Source of the DNA: a virus
Lineage: Duplodnaviria; Caudoviricetes
Virus record (IMG/VR): IMGVR_UViG_3300028048_000142
Location: 106-64,105 of that record
Reading direction: 5' to 3' (one strand)
Length of the DNA stretch: 64,000 nt
Shown piece by piece: positions 113-63,654 of the stretch. Under the pieces are notes generated by a model. That model worked only from the letters and a program-made list of their open reading frames with translations. It was not told the DNA's origin and made no database searches. Each line of letters starts with the position of its first letter. The stretch's first letter is position 1. The position numbers and the translations under genes are program-made.

Positions 113-408
113 AATTATTCCTTAAGAATATAATTCAAAGTCCTAAGACTTAGTTGTGCGTATTTAATTGCTGTTACCACAATTAAAATCCGACTTCATC
201 TCGACAATGACATTAAGGCTTGACATATCTTATCGTAAGGCATTTATTACATCAACCTTATCAGTTTTTTAAGATGCTAGAGCATTGATCTGATGCGTCA
301 ATCAAAGGTAGCATGACCCTAATATCGTAGTTTAGATTTCTCTAAACTTAGTCTGGTAAACTGTTATTTAATGAAAGCCACACCCCTTCATGGGGTGGGG
401 TAGTTTAC
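113..408 (-). ncRNA. IscB omegaRNA (HEARO-like) scaffold, copy 1
   Basis: Minus strand starts GTAAACTACCCCACCCCATGAAGGGGTGTGGCTTT directly upstream of iscB; identity with copy 2 stops sharply at 408. Confidence 0.85.
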
Positions 409-4820: not shown

Positions 4821-4909
4821 TGATTTTTAGTAGCCTCCCTGTAAAAATCTTCAATTGTTCTCCGAGAACTATGCAAATATTTTTGGTCAAGCAATTTGCA
4901 CATTTCCCA
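4805..4909 (-). pseudogene. 3' remnant of the cognate restriction endonuclease gene
   Basis: Alternative frame WEMCKLLDQKYLHSSRRTIEDFYREATKNQWIKN* overlaps the MTase start by 16 nt. Confidence 0.55.
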
Positions 4910-6219
4910 AGTTTGTGCAGAATCATTGATTTCCATATATCGAGATCTTCATAATCGGCAACTTGAAATAATTGTATTCCGTATTCACGGCATAAATCCG
5001 TTTTAAACTGATGATAATCCGGTTCTTTAAGTGAATGCCAGTATGAACCATTATATTCTATTCCTAGATTTATACTAGGAATTAAAATATCAATCTCATA
5101 CGGCTTGATGATTCTCGAACCGCTTATTGCATCCGGTGCATATTCTTTAACCCATCTGTATAACTCTATTTCCGCATGTGATTTGCCATTTATTCTATAA
5201 TTCGGCTCTGTGATATTATAGCGATTTTTAAATAACGGAACTGCATATTTTGATATATTATAGAATTCTATAAATTCTTCATGATAGAAAAATTTATCTT
5301 TGATAAAGTGTTCACGTACATATTGCTCATTCAGCAAATCATAATTTTTAAAATGCAAATGATTGCTGCTTGTTACACCATACCGCTTAAGGCAGGTTTC
5401 TTTAATCTTTTCAACTATTTCAGAATAATCACCATGATATTGCTCAAACATTGTCTGTTTAGCTTTTTCACGGTTTGTATAGTATGGATCACCATATCTT
5501 TCAATTCTAGTGTTTTTAATTTGCTCTTTTATATCATCATTCGACAAAACGCATTCAGTACCGTATTTTTCAAGGCAAGTTTGTTTAACTTTTTCTATCA
5601 CCTTATCATTCTGTAAAGGATGCTCGCAACCGTATTTTTTAAGGCATGTTTCTTTGCTTTTTTGTTGTACTTCTTTATTTTGAAGAGGTGCAACTCCACC
5701 GTACTTTTTAAGGTTTGTTTGCGCTCTTAATTCACTGTTATTATAAGTTGCATTTCCGTAACGTAATAAACATGTCTGTTTTGCCTTTTCGGGGTTATTT
5801 TTCCAGTTTGCTCTCTTTTTTGCTCTGACTTCTTCTAATTGTGATGTGGATTGAATACCCTCTCCGTATCTTTCTTTCAAGGTATTCTTTAAACTGTTTC
5901 TCATTTTATCTTTTACACGTTCATCACTGTTTGTGCATTTTGAGGAACAATAAATACTTGCCGTGGGTTTTCCACACATCGGGCAGTAGTTTAAAAGGTC
6001 TTGAAAGTATAATGCTTGTAGTTTGGTATCATCTGTATGAATTGTTTGGGATAGCAGTTCTTTGAACTTTTCATTTGCTTTTAGAATGTTTAAAATCTTT
6101 GTTACTGCATATTTTGAAATCTTTTCTTGAATTGTTTTCTTTAAGTTAGATAATAAATCAGGACTGTCTATGTTTTTGTCTACATATGCTTTAATTACAT
6201 CAAATTCTTTATTTTTCAT
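4813..6219 (-). CDS. Hef-like homing endonuclease (zinc ribbon, TxLxxYG repeats, PD-(D/E)xK domain), C-terminally truncated
   Basis: CPMC..CSSKC, TCLxxYG repeats, EIDILIP..GIEYNGSYWH; diverges from paralogue 6393-8168 right after DIWKSMIL.KLGK. Confidence 0.75.
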   Translation of the reverse strand: MKNKEFDVIKAYVDKNIDSPDLLSNLKKTIQEKISKYAVTKILNILKANEKFKELLSQTIHTDDTKLQALYFQDLLNYCPMCGKPTASIYCSSKCTNSDERVKDKMRNSLKNTLKERYGEGIQSTSQLEEVRAKKRANWKNNPEKAKQTCLLRYGNATYNNSELRAQTNLKKYGGVAPLQNKEVQQKSKETCLKKYGCEHPLQNDKVIEKVKQTCLEKYGTECVLSNDDIKEQIKNTRIERYGDPYYTNREKAKQTMFEQYHGDYSEIVEKIKETCLKRYGVTSSNHLHFKNYDLLNEQYVREHFIKDKFFYHEEFIEFYNISKYAVPLFKNRYNITEPNYRINGKSHAEIELYRWVKEYAPDAISGSRIIKPYEIDILIPSINLGIEYNGSYWHSLKEPDYHQFKTDLCREYGIQLFQVADYEDLDIWKSMILHKLGKCANCLTKNICIVLGEQLKIFTGRLLKING

Positions 6220-6392: not shown

Positions 6393-8168
6393 TTATTCAT
6401 TATTATATGCAAACACATAATTTCCGCAATCATATATTTTTAAATATCCATTATTAAACATATTATCGCTTTCAGATAGATTTGGATCAAAGTTTTCTAA
6501 AAGATTTGATAATTTATGTTTTTGGCATTGATATCTGCTTAAAACCTCAGTATTCTTAACATAAAAATAATTTGGTTGCGTTTCACCAATTTTTGTAAAT
6601 CCTAGTACTTTGTATATTTCACCATACGAAAATCTTTTATTTGCATATGTTATTATACTACCTTTATATTTTTTCTTAAAATAATTAAATAATTTTGATA
6701 CACCTCCAACTATGTGAAAATATTTTTTAGTACACAATCTTATAATTTCATAATCATAATTATTATTAAATCTTGGTTTCCCAAAAGTCATTACTTGTAC
6801 AAGTTCATCATTATAAAATAATCCAATATTTATAGAAGATCTACATTCACCTTGCAAATGATTATCAATCAAAAAATCTTTAATTTGCTCATATTTTAAT
6901 TCTTTTATATTACATTTTCTAGCATAGATTTTCTCGGATTTCCCAAGTTTGTTTAGAATCATTGACTTCCATATATCTATATTATCAAAATCAAATATAT
7001 GCAATAATTGAATACCTTTTGCCTCACACAGTTTTGTTTTATTTAAATGATAATCTTTATCTAAATTAGAATGATAGTATGTACCATCATATTCGATTGC
7101 AATTTTATAATTAGGTAAATATATATCTAATTCTAAAGGTTTTATAATTGTTCTATCACCAGATATTTTATCTTCTATCGGTATCCATTCAAATAATTCT
7201 AATTCCATTTTAGAATGACCAGTATTTGGTGAAACATCATCATTAGGTTCTGTTATTTCAAAAATTCTTTTTATTTTGCATAATCCTGAACGATTTCTAA
7301 TATTAAAATATTCGCAAAACTCTTTAACTTTAAATTTATCATTTTCAATAAAATTTTCACGAATATATTTCTCATTAAAATTTTCCTGATTTGTATGTTT
7401 AAATGCGTTAAATAATGAAAATTTAAGTTTATTACGGACTTCTTTTGATTTTGATACAATATCAACACCATATCTTTCAAGATTTGTTTTCTTTAATTTG
7501 TCTTGATATTCTTTTAATTGAAGTGCATGTTCAACACCATATCTTTCAAGATTTGTTTTCTTTGCTTTATCCTTTACAAAATCTAAAGTTGCCGGGCGTT
7601 CAACACCATATCTTTCAAGATTTGTTTTCTTTGTTTTATCTTTTACAATTTGTGATTGAAATCCATACTCAACACCATATTTTTCAAGATATGTTTTCTT
7701 TATTTTATCTCTAATAACAGTTGAATGCATACCGGTTGTTACGCCATAATTAGAGAAAAGTGTTTGTTCTTTTAATTGTTTTACTATTTCAGAATTGTTT
7801 GAACATTTTAATGAGCAGTATTTATTATTTTTTATTGGTTTTCCACAATTTAAACAATATTTTAATTCTCCATTAAAGTATGCACTTAATAATACTGTAT
7901 CATTTGTTTTTATTTTTTTATATATATCAGAAAAATCATATTTATCTATTATATATTTTAAAAATAAATTAAATGTCTCCGTTTTCTTTATTCTTTTTCT
8001 AAAATCAAATAGTATATTTTCTAACGTATCATTCTTTAATAATTCTGATAAAAGTTTATCTTTATACTCTACAAAACTAGGGACTTTTTTAAATCCTAAT
8101 AGTTTCATGCCAATTCTATTTGGTTTTCTTACAGTATGATCAAACACTTCATCTACATTTATATTCAT
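6393..8168 (-). CDS. Hef-like homing endonuclease with C-terminal GNAT/Mom-like domain
   Basis: CLNC..CSLKC, TNLERYGV repeats, ELDIYLP..AIEYDGTYYH, then EIIRLCT...ITYANKRFSYG.IY..LGF. Confidence 0.78.
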   Translation of the reverse strand: MNINVDEVFDHTVRKPNRIGMKLLGFKKVPSFVEYKDKLLSELLKNDTLENILFDFRKRIKKTETFNLFLKYIIDKYDFSDIYKKIKTNDTVLLSAYFNGELKYCLNCGKPIKNNKYCSLKCSNNSEIVKQLKEQTLFSNYGVTTGMHSTVIRDKIKKTYLEKYGVEYGFQSQIVKDKTKKTNLERYGVERPATLDFVKDKAKKTNLERYGVEHALQLKEYQDKLKKTNLERYGVDIVSKSKEVRNKLKFSLFNAFKHTNQENFNEKYIRENFIENDKFKVKEFCEYFNIRNRSGLCKIKRIFEITEPNDDVSPNTGHSKMELELFEWIPIEDKISGDRTIIKPLELDIYLPNYKIAIEYDGTYYHSNLDKDYHLNKTKLCEAKGIQLLHIFDFDNIDIWKSMILNKLGKSEKIYARKCNIKELKYEQIKDFLIDNHLQGECRSSINIGLFYNDELVQVMTFGKPRFNNNYDYEIIRLCTKKYFHIVGGVSKLFNYFKKKYKGSIITYANKRFSYGEIYKVLGFTKIGETQPNYFYVKNTEVLSRYQCQKHKLSNLLENFDPNLSESDNMFNNGYLKIYDCGNYVFAYNNE

Positions 8169-8387
8169 TGTTAAATTTCCTTAAGGAAATGCCTCAAAAT
8201 TAATTATAATTCTTGAAACAATTCCTAAACAAACATAATACACAATTATGGCTTTATTGTCAACAATATTATTGTTAATAAATGTGGTATATATCACACT
8301 TTTAACTTTAATATTGAAACAAAACCCACACACCTAAAAGTATGTAAATTATTGACGTGTTTCGTGTTTAAAATATGTTCTTATAAC

Positions 8388-8447: not shown

Positions 8448-10067
8448 TTAGTGTCTAAGGATAGAATTCGTCATATCAACTGCAAATGAGTGAGCGTACT
8501 GTTTTGCACGGTCGTTGCTATCTGCATTCTCAATGCCCGGAATAGTAGAGAGCGCATATCTTGTGCGGGCAATTATTGCTGGCTGTCCAGACTCATAATT
8601 TGTCGTCTTTGTAAATGTTAATGGTACATATGGTGCAAAGAAACCTAAAGCGTCACGTTTATCAGCACCTTTATACATAACAGTTACATAATCATCGGTA
8701 GCATACTGATCGATAATTACACGATAACGGTTATCATAAATTCCGGCAAATCCGCCAGCTACAGGCTGGTTAATATCGCCTGCTGGGGCAAGATTGAATT
8801 TAGCAGTCTGTTCAAGCATTGTAGCAACCATTGGAGAAACAAGGATAACATTACCCTGTCCACGTTTACATTCAATACCGATCTGAGTAGCTTCTTTAGC
8901 AATACGAATTGCCTGAGCGCGATAACGTTCAATTTCCCAACGACCGTCAACCATAAATGTAGGGGTTGCAACACCGCCGTTTGCAATATTTGGGGTAGTT
9001 GTATGGAAACCACCGAAAGTTGTATCTGGCAACCACTGAGAAACAGAGCGTACAAATTCAACGCATTCACGGTCAATTTCAGCCTGAATTTCCTGAGCCA
9101 TTACGTTCATCATTTCAGTTTCAGCATCCATGTCATGCTGTGCCTGTAAATCTTGGAACATTTCAATGGTATAACGACCTTTCAGGTTTCTTGATTTAGC
9201 TTCAACCTGTTTTCTCTGAATGGTGAAACCAATCTCTTTCATGTCAACACCAAGTCTTTCTGCCAATGGGGTTGCTAAACCGCCTTTAACAAGAACCTGC
9301 TGTGTAACAGTATTACCCTGTGCATCGGTTACAGTCCTTGTTTCATAGTGATAATCACCGGTGTAGTATTTCAAAATCTGATTGAAGCAAGCTTCATTAG
9401 ACCATACGTTTCTTACAGTGTAGTTTGTACCCGGAACTGCGTCACCGGCTGCAAGTTTAGCTGTTACACCATCCCATGTTACAAGGATCTTATCTTCTTC
9501 AGAATAAACTACATAACCGCCACCGATTGAAGTACCAGCAGTAGTAGTAACCTGTTCATCACCGCTTGATGCACCAACGCTGGCACCGTTCAGACCGTTT
9601 GCTGGGTTCTGAGCATTTGTAGCATATCCGGCAACGTTGATAACACCGTCTTTTAATACATCAACTGGATCTCCATTTGCATCAACTAACTGATAAACAA
9701 CTCCGCGTGGTTTTGTATCAGATGCAGTCTTATGTAAGCCAGTACCTAAATATTCGTTTACGAGAGCAAACAGATAACCGGTAGGCATTGTCATTGGCTG
9801 AATACCAAGCAGTTCATGAGCAATCAGGTTAGGATAGATACGTCTTACCATTGGCAGCAGAATAGGGGTAAACTGTGCAACGTCATTGGTATATGTACCT
9901 TCACTAATCATTCTGCGAACTGCATTCTGAGTATTCTTTAACAGTACATTCATTAAACGAGTGTTTTCTTCGTTTAATGGTTTGTACATAGATTTTGTGC
10001 TGGTTAAAATTTTATCAGCATAATTTTCACTAAGCACCTTACGGGTAGCTTCATTGATAATATCCAT
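8448..10067 (-). CDS. gp23: major capsid protein
   Basis: LPMVRRIYPNLIAHELLGIQPMTMPTG, VEAKSRNLKGRYTIEMFQDL, FFAPYVPL, QPAIIARTRYAL. Confidence 0.97.
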   Translation of the reverse strand: MDIINEATRKVLSENYADKILTSTKSMYKPLNEENTRLMNVLLKNTQNAVRRMISEGTYTNDVAQFTPILLPMVRRIYPNLIAHELLGIQPMTMPTGYLFALVNEYLGTGLHKTASDTKPRGVVYQLVDANGDPVDVLKDGVINVAGYATNAQNPANGLNGASVGASSGDEQVTTTAGTSIGGGYVVYSEEDKILVTWDGVTAKLAAGDAVPGTNYTVRNVWSNEACFNQILKYYTGDYHYETRTVTDAQGNTVTQQVLVKGGLATPLAERLGVDMKEIGFTIQRKQVEAKSRNLKGRYTIEMFQDLQAQHDMDAETEMMNVMAQEIQAEIDRECVEFVRSVSQWLPDTTFGGFHTTTPNIANGGVATPTFMVDGRWEIERYRAQAIRIAKEATQIGIECKRGQGNVILVSPMVATMLEQTAKFNLAPAGDINQPVAGGFAGIYDNRYRVIIDQYATDDYVTVMYKGADKRDALGFFAPYVPLTFTKTTNYESGQPAIIARTRYALSTIPGIENADSNDRAKQYAHSFAVDMTNSILRH

Positions 10068-15046: not shown

Positions 15047-16357
15047 TTAACGAGTATATGCAATGTGAACCTTTTCTATATCTATTAGACATGTGTTTCT
15101 TGCAGTTATCCTTTTTATTTTAGATAATTTAGGTGTTTTATCTCTTTTAGGCGCATCTGGAAATTTAATTGTTTTATTGTTTATATCCATTAAAGTCGCA
15201 TAACCTTTGCTATCAATACCTTTTATAAAGTATATATTACCTTTATATTGAACTTTATCATAACGTCTTAAACCGTTTACTTTACCTCTATTCATTCGCT
15301 TTTCAGACCGTTTTCCGTTAGTCTGTCTATAATCACCTTTAGTAACACTTCTTTTAATATATACTATATCAGATTTAAAATTAACATCTGGTCCACCATT
15401 AGCTATTATACATGCATCTATATAATGTCGTTTAGGCAATTTAGCTTCAAAACGATTTTGTTTAGTTATATAACCGTATGTTTCTATTGCATTTGGGTAA
15501 CGGTCAACTAATCGTTTTGAGATTATATTCATATGAGTATCATGTCTTAAAACCCCAAAAGGCATTCCTTTAATGTCTATTGTTATTTTACCATCATGTA
15601 TTTTTGGATGGCATACTGGACATACAGTAATTAAATTCCTTGGATCGTCACTTCCACCCCGACTTCTATAAACAATATGATGTGTTTCTAATCGAATACC
15701 ATTTTTACGTTTATAACCTTCTTTTTTACAACATATCTGACATTCATGATTATCTCGTTCTAAAACGTATTCACGGGCATTAGCATACCCATAAAGTATA
15801 CCTTTTTGATAACCAAAATGTCTATATTTTTCATTATGCAATTTAGGATTTTTCAATAAATGCATATCGAATTTAGCTGTTTCAAAAATTAGATCATCAT
15901 CTGTTACCGGAAGAATAGATTTAACAAATTCAATCTCTTTTACATGAGAATGAATTTTACTAATTAAAGTAGGTGGTAATCTACCTTTTTTAGTACTATT
16001 CTTTCTATTTAAGAATCTAGCTTTTCTATAACGAGTTTTTCTTGAACGTCTGTGTCTCCTATACATCCGTCTTTGTTCCATTTTATCTTTTATGTCATTT
16101 TTGATTGTTGTTTCAGCCATATAAACAGTATCGCCTTTTTCATTAACAACGGCAGAACCGATATGTGATGAACCAACATCAATACCCAAAGACAGTTTTT
16201 GAGTGTACTCAGTACTGTCATAAAGAAGTTTAATCGTAAAAGGACATTTACATATCACTTTTGCTTTTCCCTCTTTTAACAGCTTTCTAACCCTACCACA
16301 CCGTTTAGTAGGCATTAAGGGGTTTCCATTTTTAGATTTTACGTATACTAAATACAT
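15047..16357 (-). CDS. iscB: IscB RNA-guided endonuclease
   Basis: PLMP domain, RuvC-I GIDVG, Arg-rich bridge helix, HNH (CQIC..HHIVYRSRGGSD..NLITVC..CH), RuvC-III HYIDA. Confidence 0.96.
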   Translation of the reverse strand: MYLVYVKSKNGNPLMPTKRCGRVRKLLKEGKAKVICKCPFTIKLLYDSTEYTQKLSLGIDVGSSHIGSAVVNEKGDTVYMAETTIKNDIKDKMEQRRMYRRHRRSRKTRYRKARFLNRKNSTKKGRLPPTLISKIHSHVKEIEFVKSILPVTDDDLIFETAKFDMHLLKNPKLHNEKYRHFGYQKGILYGYANAREYVLERDNHECQICCKKEGYKRKNGIRLETHHIVYRSRGGSDDPRNLITVCPVCHPKIHDGKITIDIKGMPFGVLRHDTHMNIISKRLVDRYPNAIETYGYITKQNRFEAKLPKRHYIDACIIANGGPDVNFKSDIVYIKRSVTKGDYRQTNGKRSEKRMNRGKVNGLRRYDKVQYKGNIYFIKGIDSKGYATLMDINNKTIKFPDAPKRDKTPKLSKIKRITARNTCLIDIEKVHIAYTR

Positions 16358-16653
16358 AATTATTCCTTAAGAATATAATTCAAAGTCCTAAGACTTAGTT
16401 ATGCGTATTTAATTGCTGTTACCACAATTAAAATCCGACTTCATCTCGACAATGACATTAAGGCTTGTCATATCTTATCGTAAGGCATTTATTACTTCAA
16501 CCTTATCAGTTTTTTAAGATGCTAGAGCATTGATCTGATGCGTCAACCAAAGGTAGCATGACCTTAACATCGTAGTTTAGATTTCTCTAAACTTAGTCTG
16601 GTAAACTGTTATTTAATGAAAGCCACACCCCTTCATGGGGTGGGGTAGTTTAC
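16358..16653 (-). ncRNA. IscB omegaRNA scaffold, copy 2
   Basis: About 300 nt non-coding leader conserved with copy 1; predicted guide lies in 16654-16670. Confidence 0.85.
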
Positions 16654-20522: not shown

Positions 20523-20834
20523 TTATAACATCATTATATCAAGTCCATATTCTGATGCAATCAGATATTCCACTTTGCAGCCCCGTGCTGTTTCCCAGCC
20601 TTTTGCAAATACTACCAAATCAGCATCGGAAAGTTTAAGAATTGCTCTGCCTAGGCAATAAATAGTAGTATTTACTGAAGCATCTTTTAATGTGTATTCT
20701 CTAAAGTAAGAATCGATGATTTCAAACTTTTCATTACCAAAACGTTTTTTAATTTCAACGATTGCTTCCTCACGGTTCTTGCGAATTTGTTCTTCTGTAA
20801 GATTTTTCATTGGCGAACTTATAAATATTTTCAT
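20523..20834 (-). CDS. nucleoside deoxyribosyltransferase-like (DUF4406-type) protein
   Basis: KIFISSPM...ADLVVFAKGWETARGCKVE. Confidence 0.8.
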   Translation of the reverse strand: MKIFISSPMKNLTEEQIRKNREEAIVEIKKRFGNEKFEIIDSYFREYTLKDASVNTTIYCLGRAILKLSDADLVVFAKGWETARGCKVEYLIASEYGLDIMML

Positions 20835-20888
20835 TTTTTAACCTCTTTTTTAAAATATTATAAATATTTATATAGAGGAATTATATAT

Positions 20889-21704
20889 ATGATTAACTTC
20901 AATAATTTTAATTTTTCACATAAAAATGAATATCTCTTAAATCATTCTATGATTAGAGAGTGTATTCACTTATATGGTATACCGTGCAAATTTGTAATAA
21001 TACAAAAAGTGAACTTCGATCAATCTGTATTTGGTGATTACAGTGCAATTAAAACCAACAATTCAGATACATTTATGATTCATATGTTACCTGAAAATGC
21101 AGAGGATATTGATAAATCACAGTATGAATTTAACGAGTTCGGTTTAAATAACTATGATACCACCATGGGATATATAAGTACATCGGATTTGCCGGAAGGA
21201 TTAAATATAACAAATCTTACAGGCAATCTAATGGTGTTTCCATCTAATCAGATTATGGAGATTTCAGACTGTGAGCAGAAAGTTCCGGGGATTAACAATT
21301 TATGGGCTTATTCAGACCAAGTTTCTGTTTACAGATTAACCTTGAAACCTTACGAAAGACGTGCGCAGGATGAAATTGATAATGAATCGGTACTGAACAC
21401 AGTTGAAGTTAAGGACAACGGACCGGTTGATGTTGCCGAACTCAATTCAGTTAAAGAGATTTTTGATTCCTTAGACGGTTACTTTGATACCTTGTTAAAT
21501 GAAAAAGAAGAACAAGATTATCAAGCTGAATTTGAACCGTTTGCAGAATCAAAAGAGGATGAAACCGGAACTGAGATTATTGAAGAAAACCATGGTAAAC
21601 CTATAGAAAATCCAAAAACCATGAAACAGAAGATTAAAAATAAAGACCGCAGAGTTATTAAACCTGTAGTTGATATTTCAGAAAAAGACCCATTTAACTG
21701 GTGA
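20889..21704 (+). CDS. gp14: T4 gp14-like neck protein
   Basis: MIRECIHLYGIPCKFV..D.SVFGD, FNEFG, GNLMVFP; start after GAGG SD and late promoter. Confidence 0.8.
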   Translation: MINFNNFNFSHKNEYLLNHSMIRECIHLYGIPCKFVIIQKVNFDQSVFGDYSAIKTNNSDTFMIHMLPENAEDIDKSQYEFNEFGLNNYDTTMGYISTSDLPEGLNITNLTGNLMVFPSNQIMEISDCEQKVPGINNLWAYSDQVSVYRLTLKPYERRAQDEIDNESVLNTVEVKDNGPVDVAELNSVKEIFDSLDGYFDTLLNEKEEQDYQAEFEPFAESKEDETGTEIIEENHGKPIENPKTMKQKIKNKDRRVIKPVVDISEKDPFNW

Positions 21705-21710
21705 TAAAAT

Positions 21711-22310
21711 ATGAGATACAATGCAAATGGACAGTTAGTAACGACTGTCAATGATTTAAAACATGTTTTACAATCATCGGTAAAACCGAACAATTATAGA
21801 ATTGAACTGTTAATGCGATATAACATTAACGGTTTTGACAGTAGAACTTTTAATATACTTGTAAAATCGAGTACTTTGCCGGAAAGAAGAATAAACCTAG
21901 CGGAAGTATGGTGCAGAGGTCGTAAAGTTCAATTACGTTCAGAGCAGGAAAACAGCGGCGAATGGGAATGTACTGTAATTGATGATAATAATATGTCATT
22001 AAGAAAATCAATGACAAACTGGTTTGAACGCATTGATTCAATCAGACGTAACATGGCAGGAAACCTAGATTACATGGTATATGCGAATATCTATCAATTA
22101 GATGTACAAAGCAATCCGGTGTTTGGTGTACGTTTGAACAATGTATTTTTATCATCAATCGGAAGTGTGAATTTTGATGATTCATCGGTAGATCAATTAA
22201 CAGAATTTCCGGTAACATTCAGTTACAGTGAAATTGAGCCGCTTGCATACGGTGATAATAACAGCGGATTGATACATCCTGTTTTGTCTGTGAAATCTGA
22301 GGGTTATTAA
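21711..22310 (+). CDS. gp19: tail tube gp19-like protein
   Basis: KPNNYRI, STLPER, GRKVQL, WECTVIDD, EFPVTFSY. Confidence 0.82.
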   Translation: MRYNANGQLVTTVNDLKHVLQSSVKPNNYRIELLMRYNINGFDSRTFNILVKSSTLPERRINLAEVWCRGRKVQLRSEQENSGEWECTVIDDNNMSLRKSMTNWFERIDSIRRNMAGNLDYMVYANIYQLDVQSNPVFGVRLNNVFLSSIGSVNFDDSSVDQLTEFPVTFSYSEIEPLAYGDNNSGLIHPVLSVKSEGY

Positions 22311-22369
22311 TTTTTTTTTTTTTTAATAATTCTTGACAATATTATTAAATATGATATATTTTAAATATA

Positions 22370-22530
22370 AAAAGTTTTTGGGTGAGTTTGCTATAAAGCG
22401 GTTAGAATCCGCTGCCTCCCCACGTGGGAGGTGAAATGATGTCTTGTGAACTTGCCCAACCCCGTAAAGTGTGGGGTTTTGTGGGGGATTATAAAAGTCC
22501 CTAAATTTGTTTTAATTTAGGGACAGTTCC
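22370..22530 (+). ncRNA. candidate promoter-driven structured RNA ending in a TnpB-element right TIR
   Basis: TTGACA at 22333; motifs shared with 31211-31447; last 20 nt identical to 31428-31447. Confidence 0.45.
22446..22490 (-). mobile_element. minimal IS605-type left-end/right-end fusion
   Basis: Hybrid of 48924-48947 and 50322-50350 joined at the shared CCGTAAAG. Confidence 0.65.
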
Positions 22531-23184
22531 TTACCAATCCGTCATGCTGGCATATGTTGCATCATTCCATTTCGGGTCATCTGTTAAATACGTTGCCAGT
22601 ATGCACGTTAAAAATTCATTTTCAAAAACAATTATCTTGCGTGAGTTGAATTTCATAGTTGGAACTAATCCGAAATATCTATACAAATCAATAATCTGTT
22701 TATAATATTTGTATTGACATATTATATAAGGAAAATCATCAAATTTAATATTCACTGAAATTCCATCTAGGATTTCGTGTTCTTCAGACGCAAATACAGC
22801 ACCGTTCTTATTGAAAATCACATATTTACAGTTTTTAACTGTTTTATCTGCATAAGGAAGTATGTTAAAATTTTTCATGTTATTGTATATATTACAAAAT
22901 GTATTATATAATAATAAATCATTAGAATTATTAAAGCATATTTCATCTGTAAGATACAGTTTATCAGTGATTTTCACATCATTTTGAATATTTTTCTTGA
23001 TATAGACAAAATCATCATATGATAATGATAGTTGAATGCCTTTTAATTCCTCAGTGCAGTATTTAACCATGATAATACCATCGCTGACCATTAAGGAACT
23101 ATCAGATACACATAATGGGCTGCATCTTGCTTTGAAAGAATTTGGCAAAATGTTTACAATTTTAGAAAATATTTTAGAATCCAT
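22531..23184 (-). CDS. hypothetical protein
   Basis: 217 aa ORF with GAGG SD. Confidence 0.65.
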   Translation of the reverse strand: MDSKIFSKIVNILPNSFKARCSPLCVSDSSLMVSDGIIMVKYCTEELKGIQLSLSYDDFVYIKKNIQNDVKITDKLYLTDEICFNNSNDLLLYNTFCNIYNNMKNFNILPYADKTVKNCKYVIFNKNGAVFASEEHEILDGISVNIKFDDFPYIICQYKYYKQIIDLYRYFGLVPTMKFNSRKIIVFENEFLTCILATYLTDDPKWNDATYASMTDW

Positions 23185-23769
23185 TTAATCAACCTCACTA
23201 ACTATTCCAAACGGTATCCAACGATGTGCATTTTCCGGCAGATATTTAACATAATTAAGCAAATCCGTAGTATTCAAAGGGGTTTCAAGACCGGAAATAT
23301 AAACTCTCAAAGATTCATCCATATCGGTAGCGTCATACTCATATGCAGTTATTTGACCAATCTTGATTAATGGATTACCTTTTAAATGCCGATACATTGA
23401 AATATCTTTACTATATTGATATCTGATAGTATCACCAATTTTAAATTGTTCCTCAAATTCTTTCAAGGTGAAAGGTCGGTACACCGGTTCTAAATCACGT
23501 ACAAAGACAATATACTGCGGATTATATATAGGACTTGTTTTGTCGTTATTCTTGTATATGACGTAATCCACATGTCCATCTTGGTCGGAAACAGCACCAA
23601 AAGTGCCATAATTTGACGTTCTTAAATTAGCAAGATTTTCAAATGATTCAATATTATTGTTGCAATATGCATATTCACCTATATATTTATTGAGTGCCGG
23701 AATCTCATAACACACTTTTCCAACGGAATATACATCTTCAATACTTTTAATTCTCTTGTCCAGTTTCAC
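23185..23769 (-). CDS. hypothetical protein
   Basis: 194 aa, YRPFT and WIPFG motifs. Confidence 0.65.
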   Translation of the reverse strand: MKLDKRIKSIEDVYSVGKVCYEIPALNKYIGEYAYCNNNIESFENLANLRTSNYGTFGAVSDQDGHVDYVIYKNNDKTSPIYNPQYIVFVRDLEPVYRPFTLKEFEEQFKIGDTIRYQYSKDISMYRHLKGNPLIKIGQITAYEYDATDMDESLRVYISGLETPLNTTDLLNYVKYLPENAHRWIPFGIVSEVD

Positions 23770-28397: not shown

Positions 28398-29414
28398 ATG
28401 CAGTCATTTAAAGAATTTATCCGAGTTAAAGACCGTGAAAGCAAAGTGTTTATTCGAGAAAGCATTTATGAATTAAAACATAATGCTTTTTATAATACAG
28501 ATTACTTCAATAAAAAATATCTGTATGAGGAAGATGCACCGGAAGAAACCGATGCAGAAACCAAAGATAATACTGATAAACAAACTACAGATAAGAAACA
28601 AGATAATACTCTCGATAAACAGGATAATGCAGATGCTATTAGAAAACAGCTAGAATCTATTATTGAGTATGTTTCACCATGTTTTTTATATCTTGGACCA
28701 GAAAGATTAACGAGCATGATAGATGTAATAAATAAAAAACTTACTAAAGATTCCAAGACAGAAACATATATTTTGAATGATTTAAAAAATGCATCTGAGG
28801 AAGATCAAAAGATTATTACCCATTTAAAAGAAACATACTCAAAGATTGAAAATCTGAGTCAGGAACAGGATAAAAAGGGGTTAAACACATCATTAAAAAT
28901 TCAAAATGGTGCAGTTACAATTATAAATGAAGGATTGATAAGTGCTATCACTAAAATCTTTGCAACAATCGGCAAATGGATTAATTTGCTTATGGGTAAA
29001 TTTAAAGAAGAAAAAGGCAAGGAATGTGATACCGATAAAATCAAATCAATCTGGAATGCTGATATTGAAAAAGTAAAACCATCTATGACCGATGATGAAA
29101 AACGTAAACTTGGGGTTACATGGACTAAAGATGTATCGGCTGCCGATGTTGCAATCATGAAAAATGATAAAACAAACTTCTATAAAACAATGTGTTTAAT
29201 CTCGTTGAAGTATGGGCCTAAATCTATTGAGTACATTGCCGAAATAACCAAAAAGATGCTTGCAGACCAAAAGTTAAAAGCATTAAATCCATCATCAGAT
29301 AAGAAACAAGATGATTCTGAGGATGCTAAAAAAGATGATCAGAAAGAAACTAACGAAAGCTATAGATTTTCAAGGTTCGGAAGAATGAGAAGATTAAGTC
29401 GTAGATTTAAATAA
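28398..29414 (+). CDS. predicted internal head protein
   Basis: Late promoter; MQSFKEFI start; IRES, LYEE, INEG, TNES sites; Arg-rich C-terminus. Confidence 0.65.
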   Translation: MQSFKEFIRVKDRESKVFIRESIYELKHNAFYNTDYFNKKYLYEEDAPEETDAETKDNTDKQTTDKKQDNTLDKQDNADAIRKQLESIIEYVSPCFLYLGPERLTSMIDVINKKLTKDSKTETYILNDLKNASEEDQKIITHLKETYSKIENLSQEQDKKGLNTSLKIQNGAVTIINEGLISAITKIFATIGKWINLLMGKFKEEKGKECDTDKIKSIWNADIEKVKPSMTDDEKRKLGVTWTKDVSAADVAIMKNDKTNFYKTMCLISLKYGPKSIEYIAEITKKMLADQKLKALNPSSDKKQDDSEDAKKDDQKETNESYRFSRFGRMRRLSRRFK

Positions 29415-29531
29415 TGTGATCTGTATCACAAAATTATAAGAAACCCACCTTTTAAATGTAGGTGGGTTTTAACTGATATTATTAAATCTCATTTTTTCAC
29501 CACTTTTTTACAAATATTTTTAATAGTATTA
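29323..29531 (+). repeat. imperfect direct repeat (about 208 bp), copy 1
   Basis: Matches 31517-31723 with several substitutions and a 2-nt indel. Confidence 0.9.
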
Positions 29532-31447
29532 GGAACTGTCCCTAAATTAAATCCAATTTTAGGAACTTGTTTAACCTTAATTTCATTGTTAAGTATAGTA
29601 TAAATAATGATTAAAACTTTGAAGCATATCACATTTTTAAAAACAATTTTATTGACATATAAATAAAGGTGTTATATACTTCTTTTTAATATAATGACAT
29701 GTAGTTAAGTTATTGAACTATGAAAAAGTTAAAAGCCAAGACAAAAAATATAAAGCAAACTAAAAAAAGACGCAAAAAGAAAAGTCATAAAGATTATTTT
29801 ATGATTAGTCTTAAATTTGCATATAAGTTAATTTTTGGTGACAAAGAACTTTTAGAGAGATATGAAAAACAAGCTACATCTCTTGTTCATATTTTTTATA
29901 ACTTATTTGTTGATAATCCGAAGATGACATGCCATGAAGCTAACGAGCATATCAAAGGTTATAAGAACCTTGATTTAATGGATTCTTATATGGTTTTATG
30001 CGCTTATAGAAGATCGTATTCGATGTATAAACGTTATAATGTAGACAGTGAAGAACCATTAGGTCATAAACTCGTTTTCGGTAAACGAAAAAACCTAATT
30101 AAAACATCTAAACACACATTATCAAAAAAGGAATTTAAAAAACTAAGAATCTTACCTTTATTTTTAGAAGGTCAAAAAGCTGATTTTGCAAATAGACGTG
30201 TTAGAATTAAAGATAAACACACTCTCGAATTTGTTGTTAATGGTAAAGTGATTTTTGTTTTTAGAGTATCAGATAAAAGATGCGGTATTTTAAATCAACT
30301 CAAGAAAAAACAAGATGCTAAACAAATGCCGATTACATATACCATTGGTGATGATTATATTACTATAACTTATAATCAAAAATTGCTTACAGTTCCTAAA
30401 AATCATAATCTGTTAGCAAATAGAATCATGTCAATTGATATGAATCCTGACTATATTGGTATTACAATTTTTGATGTCGATCAAGATAGCCATATCAGAA
30501 ACATTCTAAAAGCATATGTTATTGACTGGAGTACTATAACTGAAATTCAAAAAGAATTAAAACAAGCTAGTAACTCAGAAGGTAATAAATATCTTACTAA
30601 TAAGAGAAAACATGAAATTAAGAATGTAGGTAAATTTATTTCAGATTTATCAGTATTTTATAAATGCAAATATATAGCAATAGAAGATTTGGATTTTGAT
30701 TCTAATTGCAAGGGTTTTAGGAACTCTAAATGGAATAGGAATTTAATTTTTCAATCATTATTTAAGCATTCCGTCGAAAACGGTGTTACTATTTTACGTG
30801 TTAATCCGGCTTATACAAGTATCATAGGAAATATTGTCTGCAGACATAATATTCCTGACATGTGTAGAAGTGCGTATGAAATTGGTTATCGAGCAGTAAA
30901 AGGACTTCAAAATGGAAATTTCGATAAAGACTGGGTAGATACAAATAAATATCTACATTCGTTAGATAAGATTAAACTCTTTATCACTAAATCGTTGGAA
31001 GAATGCGGTGATAAAGATAAAGAACTTAAAGAAGTTAACAAATTAACATTTAACAATGTAAAAGACTTCATGCATAGAAACAAAATACAGTATAGAGTTT
31101 CTATTGAAGACTGTCATGATAATGAAACAGTCTATATATTTAAAAACGATAAATCGCTAGTTAAGATTCATTCTTACAGCGTAAGACACTATAAAAAGAC
31201 GATTGCTTGATTCGAGAGTTTGCATAGGAAGTATTGCTTTTGAATCAAGTTAGAATGCCGTAAAAAGCAATTTAACTTTAAAATAGCGATTCACTATTAT
31301 AGAGTCTTAAAACAAAAAGAAACTCGAATAAGGTTAGGGTTTCAACTTAATATGTGTAAGCATGATGAGTTCTTTTATGTTGAACTACATGGTGTATATC
31401 ATAGTTCAAATAAGTCCCAAAATTGGATTTAATTTAGGGACAGTTCC
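29532..31447 (+). mobile_element. TIR-bounded TnpB element 1
   Basis: Perfect 29-bp TIR GGAACTGTCCCTAAATTAAATCCAATTTT; TTA on both flanks. Confidence 0.88.
29720..31210 (+). CDS. tnpB: TnpB/Cas12f-like RuvC nuclease (no zinc finger)
   Basis: SIDMNP (RuvC-I), IAIEDL (RuvC-II), VNPAYTSIIG, PDMCRSAYEIG (RuvC-III); promoter TTGACA 29652 / TATACT 29675. Confidence 0.85.
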   Translation: MKKLKAKTKNIKQTKKRRKKKSHKDYFMISLKFAYKLIFGDKELLERYEKQATSLVHIFYNLFVDNPKMTCHEANEHIKGYKNLDLMDSYMVLCAYRRSYSMYKRYNVDSEEPLGHKLVFGKRKNLIKTSKHTLSKKEFKKLRILPLFLEGQKADFANRRVRIKDKHTLEFVVNGKVIFVFRVSDKRCGILNQLKKKQDAKQMPITYTIGDDYITITYNQKLLTVPKNHNLLANRIMSIDMNPDYIGITIFDVDQDSHIRNILKAYVIDWSTITEIQKELKQASNSEGNKYLTNKRKHEIKNVGKFISDLSVFYKCKYIAIEDLDFDSNCKGFRNSKWNRNLIFQSLFKHSVENGVTILRVNPAYTSIIGNIVCRHNIPDMCRSAYEIGYRAVKGLQNGNFDKDWVDTNKYLHSLDKIKLFITKSLEECGDKDKELKEVNKLTFNNVKDFMHRNKIQYRVSIEDCHDNETVYIFKNDKSLVKIHSYSVRHYKKTIA

Positions 31448-31516
31448 TTAAGAAAGTTCATGACCAGTATAATACTGATAAATCCATAAATGCAATGTCG
31501 GATGATGAAGCAAAGA

Positions 31517-31723
31517 ATGCTAAAAAAGATGATAAGAAAGAAACTAACGAAAGCTATAGATTTTCAAGGTTCGGAAGAATGAGAAGATTAAGCCGTAGAT
31601 TTAGATAATGTGATCTGTATCACAAAATTATAATAAACCCACCTTTTGAATGTAGGTGGGTTTTAACTGATATTATTAAATCTCATTTTCACCACTTTTT
31701 TACAAATATTTTTAATAGTATTA
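31517..31723 (+). repeat. imperfect direct repeat, copy 2
   Basis: Matches 29323-29531. Confidence 0.9.
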
Positions 31724-31986: not shown

Positions 31987-32044
31987 AATAATTCGATTAT
32001 GTTATTATTATATAATAAATAATAAATAAAAACTGTGATATATA

Positions 32045-32670
32045 TCACAGTTTCTTAGGAAACCCTAGATGATGTATGATGTACGGATCTGTGCAAGGTG
32101 GCAGAAACCGATTCCAGCATACATCATTCGGCATTATTCTTATACGATCTCTGAATTTCCAATTGAAAAAGTCCTGTTCTGGACAGCTTGAAAACGGACA
32201 GCTTTTAAAAAACCATTGAAGTTCTTCTATATTAAACTCATATTTAAAATTCATTATCATGAATCTGGCATTGATATATCGTGACGGCTCAATTCCTATG
32301 AAGTCTAAAACCTTTTTACGTTTATCAGACAGTCTATGATAATTCAAATCTTCTAAGCAGCCATAAAGATACTGCTCAGAATACCGTTCAAGAATAGGTG
32401 TGATGTCTTTTTAAACTCTAAATCCAAGTCAAAGTTAAAAACTTGCTCATGCTGCATGGATAAATCTGAAAAGATTTTAATTTTTGCTAATAATAAGTCT
32501 AAAAAACGGTCATAATTAGTATGGGATTTGAAATCAATCTCGATTTTGGGTATTATTTTTGAATTTTTTATTAATTTTGTATTAGAATATATATAATAAT
32601 CATTATTAATATTAATATTTTTTAGATATTTTTCGTAATTTGCATCTAAAACACAGAAACCAATCCTCAT
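32045..32670 (-). pseudogene. GT8-like glycosyltransferase split by a single -1 frameshift
   Basis: DLD motif in the first ORF; YINA, EQDFFN, IIHHLG in the second; one extra A at the A5 run (32408-32412) joins them in frame. Confidence 0.7.
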
Positions 32671-39300: not shown

Positions 39301-39557
39301 TATTTAACCCAAACAATATCATACTTCTCAGGTTTATTATCGCATGTATCGGTTGTTCCATCCATGTAAACAACACGGATGCACTGTTTTGTACTCCAAG
39401 ATACTTCAACTTCCGGGGTATTCAATGAATTAAACATAATCCATGATAAAATTGCCACTGCAAGAATTGAAATAACTGTATAGATCATAGCAATTAAAAT
39501 TTTTTCACGTCTTAATGCAGCATTATTCTTATTTTCCCATTCTTCAAAACTCATCAT
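39300..39557 (-). CDS. small membrane protein
   Basis: One TM helix plus PEVEVSWST..C motif. Confidence 0.6.
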   Translation of the reverse strand: MMSFEEWENKNNAALRREKILIAMIYTVISILAVAILSWIMFNSLNTPEVEVSWSTKQCIRVVYMDGTTDTCDNKPEKYDIVWVK

Positions 39558-39667
39558 AATGTATTCCTCTCACAAATCAATGATATCTATTATATATAGA
39601 AACCCCATATTGTCAATGCAAATCTATGAAAAATGTGAGTTAAATCAAGCTGCACTCATTCAAAAGT

Positions 39668-40504
39668 TGCTCAAAGTTGCAATAAACTATTTGAGTTTGG
39701 CAATAGTTTATTAGCAGTTTGAAGTGTTTTGATTACTTTTTAACCAACTGAATGAACCTAGAGCAAGGCTCTGAACTGTTACAGACTTCTAAAAACATGC
39801 TCAAAGTGGCGATAAACTATTTAAGAATGCCAATAGTTTATTAGCAGTTTGAAGTGTTTTGATTACTTTTTAACCAACTGTATGAACCTAGAGCAAGGCT
39901 CTGAACTGTTACAGACTTCTAAAAACATGCTCAAAGTGGCGATAAACTATTTAAGAATGCCAATAGTTTATTAGCAGTTTGAACACATTTGATTACTTTT
40001 TAAACAACTGTATGAACTTAGAACACGGTTCTTAACTGTTACAGAATCCAAAAACATGCTCAAAGTAGCGATAAACTATTTAAGAATGCCAATAGTTTAT
40101 TAGCAGTTTGAACACATTTGATTACTTTTTAAACAACTGTATGAACTTAGAACACGGTTCTTAACTGTTACAGAATCCAAAAACATGCTCAAAGTAGCGA
40201 TAAACTATTTAAGAATGCCAATAGTTTATTAGCAGTTTGAAGTGTTTTGATTACTTTTTAACCAACTGTATGAACCTAGAGCAATGCTCTGAACTGTTAC
40301 AGACTTCTAAAAACATGCTCAAACTATCAATAAACTATTTCAGTTTCCAAATAGTTTATTAGCACTTTGAAAGGTTTTGTTCACTTTTTAACCAACTGTA
40401 TGAACATAGAACACGGTTCTTAACTGTTACAGAATCCTAAAAACATGCTCAAAGTGGCGATAAACTATTTCAGTTTCCCAAAGGTTTATTAGCACTTTGA
40501 GCAT
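39668..40504 (+). repeat. tandem array of about 6.4 units of 129-130 bp
   Basis: TGCTCAAA recurs at 39668, 39798, 39928, 40057, 40186, 40316, 40446; each unit holds two hairpins. Confidence 0.97.
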
Positions 40505-40575
40505 GAAAATTAAAAAACTAAAAATAAATATAAATAAAAATAAAGAATTATATCATTACGAAAGGAATTCAAAAA

Positions 40576-47068: not shown

Positions 47069-47173
47069 AATTTTTCTTCCTTTCATTTCGTTGTTTCGTT
47101 TTATGCTTTATATATTACTCAAAATGATTTAAAAAGTCAAACATATTTCATTAAAAATGTGATATATATCACA

Positions 47174-50350: not shown

Positions 50351-50365
50351 GCAAAACCTTTTTAA

Positions 50366-63499: not shown

Positions 63500-63654
63500 A
63501 TATTATTCCTTTTTAATGTTAACAATTGTTAAAGTTACGTTTTAACACCCTTTCGGGCAAGTCGTAATTTGATGAATATTTTTTTGTATTCTATCTTTAT
63601 TTATATTTTTTAAGATTTTTTCCTAAAATTTCGGGGGTGGATTAGGGGGGTTGA

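Follow-up and report, generated by a model that had tools for sequence, protein, structure and literature searches.

The intergenic locus that ends at position 22530 of the window (i.e., the whole 64,000-nt stretch of phage DNA that was analyzed) is probably a solo right-end (RE) remnant of a TnpB-carrying element that has terminal inverted repeats (TIRs) and duplicates TTA, situated in a mosaic region between two convergent genes (Table 1). What survives of the transposon looks like the last 36 bases of its right end, fused to unrelated hairpin DNA. A preliminary description of this DNA had proposed a compact omegaRNA of about 160 nt that acts in trans with the 496-amino-acid (aa) TnpB of element 1, and had named a decayed remnant as the fallback. 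We favor the fallback, since the scaffold of the element's RNA is missing and only the terminal hairpin is shared.

Table 1. Features of the locus and of reference element 1 (window coordinates)
Feature	Position	Strand	Description	Basis
Tail tube gene	21711-22310	+	Left neighbor of the intergenic region	
Sigma-70-like promoter	22333-22360	+	TTGACA 22333-22338, 16-nt spacer with TG, TATATT 22355-22360; expected start ~22367	
Unique GC-rich part	22378-22435	+	5' strand GGGTGAGTTTGC and two hairpins	Fold
Hairpin 1	22398-22412	+	GCGG-TTAGAAT-CCGC	Fold
Hairpin 2	22415-22431	+	CCTCCC-CACGT-GGGAGG	Fold
Repeated hairpin module copy	22436-22496	+	ATGATG..TGTGAACT, hairpin CCCAACCCC/GGGGTT, TTTTGTGGGGG, ATTATAAAAG	Related copies, nhmmer
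RE remnant	22495-22530	+	Hairpin Pd GTCCCTAAATT/AATTTAGGGAC (11 bp, 22497-22524) and AGTTCC	Sequence identity, model R1
TTA	22531-22533	.	Target triplet at which the element family inserts; also the stop codon (TAA) of the convergent ORF	
Putative guide of the preliminary description	22531-22550	+	Flanking sequence, antisense to the 3' end of ORF 22531-23184	
Convergent ORF	22531-23184	-	Right neighbor; its stop codon is TTA 22531-22533	
Reference element 1	29532-31447	+	29-nt perfect TIRs, TTA on both sides	
TnpB-like ORF of element 1	29720-31210	+	496 aa	Fold match
RE RNA core of element 1	31310-31447	+	Four hairpins (Pa, Pb, Pc, and Pd)	Covariation

Terminus of the locus

The last 36 nt of the locus were 92% identical to the right end of element 1 (31412-31447), and the last 20 nt (TTTAATTTAGGGACAGTTCC; 22511-22530) were identical to 31428-31447, as previously described. 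The exact terminal 15-mer was found only at 22516-22530(+), 31433-31447(+), and 29532-29546(-). The guide-proximal hairpin Pd (AAGTCYC...GRGAC), which covaries within the element family (CG replaced by UA in L053), is present at 22497-22524 with 11 bp. As at the boundary of an omegaRNA, the 3' end coincides with the right boundary of the transposon and is followed by flanking DNA that starts with TTA. This TTA also serves as the stop codon for the adjoining ORF on the minus strand, again in agreement with the preliminary description. TTA or TAA flanks four of five distinct full-length right ends and all six left ends at the phage loci, both ends of L053 and L054, and both sides of 25 of 36 bacterial MITE copies. 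Taken together, the AAGTCCC...GGGAC hairpin, the identical 20-nt terminus, and the TTA flank bear out the proposed derivation of the locus from the RE of element 1's TIR/TnpB family.

The partner end and the gene that was reported as missing are indeed absent. No left inverted repeat was detected upstream, even with up to three mismatches allowed, and a tblastn search with the 496-aa protein gave a meaningful E value only at 29720-31207. The locus thus has the features of a solo insertion sequence (IS) end (i.e., a family terminus at the target triplet, without a partner end or an element gene nearby). We infer that an element of the element 1 family was inserted at the TTA that forms the stop codon of the convergent ORF, and that all of it except about 36 nt (i.e., the guide-proximal hairpin and AGTTCC) was later lost. 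The remnant would now be joined, at ATTATAAAAG, to one copy of the hairpin module that is repeated in these phages. Against such a history, it is exactly the guide-adjacent hairpin that was kept, improved to 11 perfect pairs, along with the exact 20-nt terminus.

On the minus strand, a terminator-like site (22524-22497; 11 pairs, 4 of them G-C; loop of 6; tail TTTTATAATC), called by consensus match only, lies directly after the stop codon of the ORF. The perfect 11-bp Pd hairpin and the T-run that follows it (TTTTAT) probably terminate the convergent ORF.

The identical terminus could also belong to a still-mobile, nonautonomous MITE-like element of the TIR/TTA family, and pairs with the same termini are common in bacteria (43 of 121 ends). 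However, the left inverted repeat is absent at the mismatch level given above, and the right TTA is the only flank that can be identified, whereas a MITE has both terminal repeats and a target-site duplication on either side. The unit 22378-22530 was not found at other TTA-flanked sites in the window, in five related records, or in the IMG/VR pattern scans. We regard this explanation as extremely improbable.

Predicted guide RNA scaffold and TnpB-like nuclease of element 1

The RNA structure at the right end of element 1 showed 10 pairs with compensatory changes, compared with 2.1 ± 1.2 in shuffled sequences (0 of 500 as high) and at most 3 when slid, and the covariation of the four hairpins extends to relatives whose protein is 38% identical. 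Three of these four family-conserved hairpins are missing from the locus, together with the conserved single-stranded blocks GAATAAGGTTA and TTTTAGGT. A covariance model of Pa, Pb, and Pc (R2; filters off; whole window) yielded 62 hits at an E value of ≤10, none of which overlapped 22367-22496(+). The full RE model (R1) scored the locus at 27.9 bits, below the left end of element 1 at 29532-29624(-) (37.5 bits), which is not an RNA and shares only the TIR with the RE; with an effective sequence number close to 1, both models could miss a structural analogue without sequence similarity. Only positions 22495-22530 were convincingly aligned by R1. A further R1 match at 8185-8259(-) (19.9 bits), in the promoter region before ORF 6393-8168, was judged to be due to chance. 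Covariance modeling, which the preliminary description had suggested as a check, did not recover the inner scaffold (R2 was silent on the locus and R1 scored it below the left end). Judged by the refuting condition that it had named (no shared secondary structure), the view of the roughly 160 nt as a compact homologue of the element's omegaRNA is unsupported, the terminal hairpin being the only shared secondary structure.

The preliminary description had also listed motifs shared in order between the two loci (i.e., GAGTTTGC, GTTAGAAT(G)CCG, and ATGATG..TCTT..GAACT). The motifs are present in the locus and in the element RE, but homology beyond chance did not hold up. Exact matches of at least 5 nt between 22376-22494 and 31205-31410 formed, at best, a collinear chain of 31 nt, a value reached by 336 of 1,000 dinucleotide shuffles and by 30% of 1,240 other real windows of the phage; of 2,096 other real windows, 84% equaled or exceeded the locus in their match to the RE. 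The best local alignment scored 17, compared with 16.1 ± 2.3 for shuffled sequences (169 of 500 scored ≥17). Both the motif chain and the local alignment are at chance level. Moreover, GAGTTTGC varies among the element's own copies (GGGTTTAC or GGGTTTGC), and the group ATGATG..TCTT..GAACT falls inside the repeated module. Two candidate pairings (i.e., GAGTTTGC with GTTGAACT, and GAACT with the terminal AGTTC) were rejected, as inspection by eye found one-sided changes only across copies, while the local Pc pairing was truly compensatory.

Scanning IMG/VR for the 5' motifs (GAGTTTGC..GTTAGAAT..CCG) returned only the orthologous locus L012 and L019, the latter a chance match in a GC-rich coding region. 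A scan for AAGTCYC..GRGACAGTTCC gave 42 loci, six of which were known family contigs; among the remaining 36 loci (37 matches), none was followed by TTA and no hairpin was seen.

The 496-aa protein of element 1, described as a TnpB, is supported as a TnpB/Cas12f-like RuvC nuclease by its predicted fold. Its AF2 model had a pLDDT of 84.6, its best PDB fold matches were Cas12f, ISDra2 TnpB, and Cas12k (Foldseek E values, 6e-10 for 8j12_A [Cas12f], 2e-7 for 8exa_A [ISDra2 TnpB], and 2.5e-6 for 8h1j_A), and residues D240, E322, and D380 (RuvC D..E..D) were invariant in 22 sequences. By tblastn, it was about 30% identical to the ISCaje4 TnpB of Campylobacter phage CP220. None of the 22 family members matched Pfam OrfB_IS605 or Cas12f1-like_TNB, the protein itself had no NCBIfam, PHROG, or PDB sequence match, and an hhalign comparison with the canonical TnpB of the window covered only 31 columns (E value, 0.022).

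Repeated hairpin module

The module copy that adjoins the remnant has counterparts at seven other places across three phage records (50299-50372 in the window; 47962, 57990(-), 58802, 84536, and 87088 in G001; 72823(-) in G002). Where its placement was inspected (L190 and L191), the module lies between ORFs or ahead of a gene start. The nhmmer profile of the module matched the locus with an E value of 1e-16 and the 5' ends of both HEARO/IscB RNAs weakly (E values, 0.004 to 0.006), and gave no match to the element RE at an E value of ≤100. The resemblance of the module is to the left end of the IscB elements of the phage and not to the RE of the TnpB element. On the plus strand it is terminator-like, its hairpin forming a weak terminator (four U residues, two of them pairable). 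This weakness counts against the remnant reading, since transcripts could read through into the remnant and its flank.

Promoter, folding, and conservation

The promoter that had been noted at 22333 is present, is near consensus (11 of 12 matches), and is aimed through the locus toward the terminus. It ranked first among the 22 promoter-like sites found in 21500-23500; shuffled sequences gave 11.6 ± 4.2 sites, so that such sites are common in this AT-rich DNA. The GC-richer noncoding stretch was likewise recovered, with a G+C content of 0.38 to 0.51 in 100-nt windows across 22350-22549, compared with 0.17 to 0.27 directly outside and 0.314 in the whole window. The predicted RNA fold of the locus had a free energy of -60.8 kcal/mol (z score, -5.04), and none of 200 shuffles folded equally well. 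The near-consensus promoter directed through the locus, as well as G+C and folding levels far above those expected if a remnant had been drifting in a genome of 31% G+C, argue against the remnant reading.

Also counted against it is the identity of the 164 nt of the locus in the related phage record G001, whereas the alignment of the two records over about 5.1 kb has 163 differing columns; this identity is weak evidence, since only about 3 to 5 differences would be expected there. The promoter is identical in G001, which differs at 22364-22366 (three substitutions and an 11-nt insertion) and in the length of the T-run at 22311-22317. A distant-mode search of a phage database with a 261-nt query returned eight records, in all of which the match was confined to the AT-rich promoter part and spanned ≤24% of the query. 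Words of the phage were shared by 24 sequencing runs (6 of them RNA); the four runs that held at least half of the words are labeled bovine gut metagenome, from which we claim no habitat, and the DNA runs X3-X19 contained about 40 to 50% of the words of a 10-kb stretch.

The unique GC-rich part had no second copy in the window or the record it comes from, and none in five related phage records or the other loci examined. No Rfam family was detected at the locus (best match in 22250-22650, 17.7 bits, compared with a gathering score of 51), and the only passing Rfam matches in the window were two HEARO copies (RF02033) at 189-408(-) and 16434-16653(-). The idea that GCGG-TTAGAAT-CCGC is a tRNA remnant was dismissed, as ARAGORN predicted no tRNA in the window.

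The remnant reading accommodates a separate plus-strand transcription unit of about 110 nt, which would begin at the promoter, include both unique GC hairpins as well as that of the module, and end at UUUUGU, mostly upstream of the RE remnant. Alternatively, the structured transcript from this promoter could be an independent small or antisense RNA of the phage, with a function unrelated to TnpB and with the transposon end as a passenger; a read-through product would be antisense to the 3' end of the convergent ORF. The locus has the best promoter-like site of the region, GC-rich hairpins unique to it, a module hairpin with UUUUGU that could end such a transcript, and no downstream gene on the plus strand. 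On the other hand, it matches no Rfam family, promoter-like sites are frequent in AT-rich DNA, and the locus is known in two closely related records only, so no covariation is available. On balance we consider an independent RNA unlikely.

Part of the same DNA could be read as a small protein gene, in which GGGAGGTG (22426-22433) serves as the ribosome-binding site for an ORF of 22 aa (MMSCELAQPRKVWGFVGDYKSP) from ATG 22436 to TAA 22502-22504. The Shine-Dalgarno-like sequence is strong and lies 2 nt ahead of ATG ATG, and the ORF is unchanged in G001. However, the Shine-Dalgarno-like sequence forms the 3' arm of a 6-bp GC hairpin, its spacing to the start codon is very short, and the ORF crosses the repeated module, which itself lies between ORFs or before a gene start (L190 and L191) and whose copies elsewhere differ in length. 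A coding function is hardly credible.

Putative guide and empty sites

The putative guide matched only its own site within the window and only the orthologous locus among the other loci examined. Its 17-mer occurred at 23 IMG/VR loci, all of which except L012 had unrelated contexts by eye and were taken as chance matches. A search for an empty site through relatives of the tail tube gene found only G001, and that through relatives of the convergent ORF found G001 and L189, an unrelated GC-rich contig. The lack of an empty site among these relatives and the 17-mer loci weighs against the remnant reading.

It is quite unlikely that the region encodes a promoter-driven, compact chimeric guide RNA (i.e., the unique hairpins, the module, the RE hairpin, and a guide from the flank) that the 496-aa TnpB-like nuclease of element 1 uses in trans (e.g., against co-infecting relatives without this insertion). 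The correctly oriented promoter, the strong fold, the exact terminus with an RE-type guide-proximal hairpin beside TTA, a TnpB-like nuclease with the same terminus 7 kb away, and the identity of the locus in G001 are all in line with such an RNA. Precedents exist in the PATE elements, which often encode omegaRNAs that need to be used in trans (PMC10055086), and in the omegaRNA arrays of Sigma-TnpB loci (PMC10691335). Against it stand the absence of three of the four family-conserved hairpins and of the linkers GAATAAGGTTA and TTTTAGGT, the chance-level motif similarity, a middle part that consists of an unrelated repeated module and places a terminator-like hairpin ahead of the would-be guide, and the lack of a second guide match in the window, the loci examined, or IMG/VR. 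Very doubtful, too, is the specific proposal of a promoter-driven mini guide RNA that joins the Pd hairpin of a TnpB right end, a hairpin like the left end of IscB, and the two private GC hairpins, and with which the TnpB-like nuclease of the phage would cut co-infecting relatives in trans at the 3' end of ORF 22531-23184.

Family ends in other phages and in bacteria

Ends of this family without a TnpB match in the stretch examined also occur in related phages (L007/L014, L173, and L013:4585 [L193]), and those of L173 and L013/L193 adjoin the repeated hairpin module. The family terminus (GGAACTGTC) with TTA flanks forms MITE-like pairs in many Clostridia genomes. In bacterial genomes, 121 ends had the same terminus and TTA: 43 were in short MITE-like pairs, 69 had no left end detected within 3.5 kb, one belonged to a clear element with a TnpB-like ORF, and 8 further candidate pairs held ordinary host-like ORFs. 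Since only one clear TnpB-like ORF accompanied the 121 bacterial ends, the terminus alone is no marker of a guide RNA. Clustering of 150 ORFs inside these ends revealed no recurrent transposase, only host-gene clusters of at most three members. Transposases of the IS5 group or of the Harbinger type typically produce 3-bp TWA duplications.

If the remnant reading is true, the locus is ordinary (i.e., another decayed mobile-element end that may have been co-opted as a terminator), and it cautions that an exact terminus combined with a promoter and good folding does not amount to an omegaRNA if the conserved scaffold of the family is lacking. More interesting are its surroundings, in which a single T4-like phage fragment encodes an IscB and a canonical TnpB as well as a TnpB-like nuclease that is invisible to Pfam. 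A functional guide RNA, in turn, would be a natural guide uncoupled from both the transposon and the nuclease gene in a phage, and the chimeric mini guide would represent a step from a transposon-bound guide to a free-standing, CRISPR-like guide locus.

Comparison with known systems

The TnpB omegaRNA (reRNA) of IS200/IS605- and IS607-type elements is encoded at their right end; its scaffold stops at the transposon boundary, and flanking DNA supplies the guide. The RE of element 1 fits this pattern, with four covarying hairpins and ACAGTTCC as the last bases before the flank. Of these features, the solo locus retains the boundary and the final hairpin; it lacks the other three hairpins, the linkers, and an adjacent tnpB. 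The element 1 family differs from IS200/IS605 and IS607 in its perfect TIRs and 3-bp TTA duplication; those two groups have neither TIRs nor duplications (PMC13565253). The DDE-transposase-associated branches of TnpB with inverted terminal repeats include solo TnpB flanked by the same ends (Altae-Tran et al., 2023, PMC10691335) and are summarized as ISL2, IS630, and IS1031 in PMC13565253. Elements 1 and 2 of the window are similarly TnpB-only units with TIRs and 3-bp TTA/TAA flanks, with MITE-like pairs in bacteria, but no transposase with these ends was found among the inner ORFs of the 121 bacterial ends.

At its start, the module resembles the left boundary and the first hairpin of both IscB elements in the window, and ACTACCCCACCCC...GGGGTG is common to the module copies L169 and L173 and to 16650(-) and 405(-). 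However, the likeness to the HEARO/IscB omegaRNA (RF02033) involves only about 32 of 211 model positions, the locus has no HEARO score, and its own module copy is more diverged (ACTTGCCCAACCCC). The PATE elements, which are nonautonomous IS200/IS605 elements (Meers et al., 2023 preprint, PMC10055086), share with the locus a guide-RNA-type end without its own nuclease gene, the nuclease being encoded elsewhere in the genome; PATEs keep both ends and a recognizable omegaRNA, whereas the solo locus has one end and an unrecognizable scaffold. Finally, although the locus differs from solo IS ends in lying behind a strong promoter-like site and within unusually GC-rich, well-folding DNA, it resembles them in that a fragment with the sequence of an IS terminus lies at the target triplet, without a partner end or gene.

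Gene setting of the solo locus

Nearly the whole of the 64,105-nt IMG/VR virus record lies within the window (G+C content, 31.4%), and three OMEGA-type nucleases (IscB and two TnpB-type genes) are encoded in these 64 kb of a T4-like phage. The solo locus (22333-22550), which carries right-end-like DNA with no tnpB, is located between the tail tube gene and a convergent ORF (22531-23184, minus strand). Two tandem-repeat arrays that lie 23 kb apart (39532-40609 and 63620-63999; ~130-nt and ~120-nt units) are mutually inverted copies (up to 88% over 121 nt), and two minus-strand DUF7487 ORFs (4813-6219 and 6393-8168) contain internal 69-nt periodic repeats (5490-5600 and 7440-7714).

Features of the phage and copies of the repeated module (G001 and G002, related phage records)
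Feature	Position	Strand
Gp23-type major capsid protein	8448-10067	-
Head-closure protein	20787-21704	
Tail tube protein	21711-22310	
IscB (RRXRR + HNH), complete; preceded by HEARO RNA	15047-16357	-
HEARO (IscB omegaRNA) copies, n = 2	189-408 (window start) and 16434-16653	-
Canonical TnpB ORF (Pfam OrfB_IS605 and Cas12f1-like_TNB)	60609-61886	
496-aa ORF of element 1	29720-31210	
Other copies of the repeated module	window 50299-50372; G001 47962, 57990, 58802, 84536, 87088; G002 72823	

Element 1 and the predicted RNA scaffold of its right end

Element 1 (29532-31447) has perfect inverted ends of 29 nt and TTA on each side. Its 496-aa protein matched nothing in Pfam, NCBIfam, PHROG or PDB sequences, and a TnpB Pfam match was found for 0/22 aligned members of its family, across which D240, E322, and D380 are invariant. 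The protein is ~30% identical to ISCaje4 TnpB of Campylobacter phage CP220 and to Lak megaphage ORFs (tblastn). Because the family models are silent and the best matches of an AlphaFold model (pLDDT 84.6) are Cas12f, ISDra2 TnpB, and Cas12k, the label "TnpB-like" is justified through the predicted fold and not through family models. Relatives with 81-85% identity occur in four other IMG/VR records, and more distant ones (43% and 38%) are located in metagenome contigs.

A truncated duplicate follows element 1 (29310-29519 versus 31504-31713, also 31448-31610; 96% over 212 nt, blastn). ORF 28398-29414 contributes its 3' end and hairpin to the duplicated stretch, which extends up to the TATTA insertion point; element 1 seems to have brought along some flanking DNA of a relative, unless the insertion site was duplicated. 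A palindromic motif around TGTGATATATATCACA, possibly an operator, is found at 2395-2443, 8245-8302, 31996-32053, 47132-47180, and 29620-29640; its copies adjoin promoter-like sites, and one of them falls within the left end of element 1.

Six aligned right ends, the 38% relative included, show four consecutive hairpins (Pa, Pb, Pc, and the terminal, guide-proximal Pd), followed by ACAGTTCC. Ten pairs are changed on both sides (2.1 +/- 1.2 in shuffles, 0/500 as high; at most 3 with the partners slid), although these represent few independent events, since the majority come from one divergent sequence. Loops and linkers are also kept across the family (e.g., GAATAAGGTTA, TTTTAGGT, and AATAAGTC). 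Together with the hairpins, they have the appearance expected of an omegaRNA scaffold.

Likeness of the solo locus to the right end

The solo locus shares with the right end the hairpin Pd with its right-end-specific 5' arm AAGTCCC (AAGTTCC or otherwise different in left ends), the last 20 nt, and TTA. A covariance model of the whole right-end core (R1) scored the solo locus at 27.9 bits (E = 8e-5), lower than the left end of element 1 (37.5 bits), which has only the inverted repeat in common with the right end. The R1 alignment skips Pa and Pc and fits Pb to an unrelated hairpin. A model of Pa to Pc (R2), run over the whole window with filters off, placed none of its 62 matches at E <= 10 on 22367-22496 (plus strand). 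With an effective sequence number of ~1, both models test likeness to the element-1 family scaffold and not to every structural analogue.

The preliminary description had also listed motifs shared in order with the right end, and these are at chance level. A collinear chain of exact matches as long as the best one (31 nt) arose in 336/1000 shuffles and in 30% of 1240 real windows from elsewhere in the phage; local alignment of the nonterminal part scored 17 (16.1 +/- 2.3 in shuffles; 169/500 scored >= 17), and 84% of 2096 further windows resemble the right end no less than the solo locus does. What stands of that description is the right-end terminus, the promoter-like site, and the rise in G+C content behind it; the strong fold is real as well.

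A repeated hairpin module and its possible link to IscB

The segment 22436-22496 (ATGATG..TCTTGTGAACT, a GC hairpin, TTTTGTGGGGG, and ATTATAAAAG) is one copy of a module that recurs in these phages, with the layout (ATG)TGTGAACTACCCCACCCC-GTAAAG-GGGTGGGG-TTTTGTGGGGATTATAAAA. A profile of six copies matched the solo locus (E = 1e-16) and had no match on the right end of element 1 at E <= 100; therefore, the third group of motifs formerly attributed to the right end (ATGATG..) belongs to this module. One copy (L191) even carries GATGATGTGGACTAC. Since the first half of the module nearly matches the start of both IscB elements in the window, where GTAAACTACCCCACCCCATGAAGGGGTGTGG is the point from which the two copies run identical, sequence likeness makes an origin from the IscB-element left end, or a hairpin common to both, more likely for the module than membership in a TnpB scaffold. 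The exact onset of identity between the two HEARO/IscB copies, GTAAACTACCCC, marks the left boundary of the IscB element.

A truncated TnpB-element end lies within ~150 nt of 3/6 module copies of G001. Another G001 locus (L192, 47700-48250) has the 3' part of a HEARO-like RNA, then the module in place of iscB, then TTTTAGAGACAGTT, which resembles a TnpB-element terminus; it is another mosaic of OMEGA-element fragments. The 5' part of the solo locus (22367-22445) had no other copy in the window, its own record, five related phage records or the compared loci, and it yielded no Rfam match and no tRNA call.

Possible function of the solo locus

The promoter-like site of the solo locus (11/12 match with TG) is the best in a 2-kb region, the DNA is GC-rich with a fold z score of -5.0, and Pd is a perfect 11-bp stem. 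Relative to G001, 164 nt are identical, while ~5.1 kb of alignment between the records contains 163 differing columns; an 11-nt indel and a change in T-run length lie just upstream. This identity is a weak sign of function, because ~2-3% divergence predicts only a few differences in 164 nt. All four features fit several readings, including the proposal of a working guide RNA acting in trans. We consider such an RNA improbable: besides the silence of the Pa-to-Pc model, the proposed guide matched nothing but its own flank within the window, and outside it nothing but the orthologous locus.

On the minus strand, Pd and TTTTAT form a terminator-like site right after the stop codon of ORF 22531-23184. 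A ~110-nt plus-strand transcript could end at the module hairpin and UUUUGU, before the remnant. We judge that the locus is probably a solo right-end remnant within a mosaic that combines a private GC-rich segment with the repeated module, and that it was probably reused as a terminator. No relative of the tail tube gene or of the convergent ORF showed an empty allele. A 22-codon ORF (22436-22504; MMSCELAQPRKVWGFVGDYKSP) directly behind GGGAGGTG is probably spurious, because it passes through the repeated module.

Distribution of the terminus and comparison with known transposons

Remnants of such elements are common. Related phage records contain TIR copies for which the examined stretch gave no TnpB match (L007/L014, L013:4585 [L193], and L173), and L173 and L013/L193 adjoin the same repeated module. 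With one genome per prokaryote species, the terminus TTTWGRGACAGTTCC followed by TTA was found at at least 121 ends in bacterial genomes (L195-L314, e.g., L206, L222, L226, and L203); among the matches listed, many records bear Lachnospiraceae or Eubacterium MAG titles. A left end lies within 700 nt of 43 of the 121 ends listed, forming MITE-like pairs (often 154-158 nt; TTA on both sides in 25/36 of those printed) that are multicopy in individual Lachnospiraceae/Eubacterium MAGs and also in Parashewanella. For nine ends, the candidate left partner lies at a distance of 700-3500 nt, and only L203 among these is a clear TnpB-like unit (1741 nt; its 473-aa ORF starts, by eye, like the element-1 family proteins). 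For the remaining 69, no left end was detected within 3.5 kb. The 121 ends listed enclose no recurrent transposase ORF, and no transposase bearing these ends came to light. Since only one of the ends listed belongs to a clear TnpB-like unit, the terminus is first of all a transposition signal, usually without any TnpB.

TTA directly follows 4/5 distinct full-length right ends of the element-1 family (TAT in the fifth), TAA, read outward, adjoins 6/6 left ends, and the 38% relative has TTA/TTA at both of its sites. The canonical TnpB unit (60505-61979) has 31-nt inverted ends (28/31 identical; tips GGAAC and GGCAT) and TAA on each side, which makes it the second TnpB unit of the TIR type, likewise with a flank repeat of 3 bp. 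IS5-group and Harbinger-type transposases typically produce 3-bp (TWA) duplications.

PATE elements frequently carry omegaRNAs for use in trans (PMC10055086), and IS200/IS605 and IS607 are described as lacking TIRs and duplications (PMC13565253). PMC10691335 reports inverted terminal repeats in TnpB branches associated with DDE transposases, as well as solo TnpBs bearing the same ends; the element-1 terminus may already be present in the supplementary transposon-end lists of that study.
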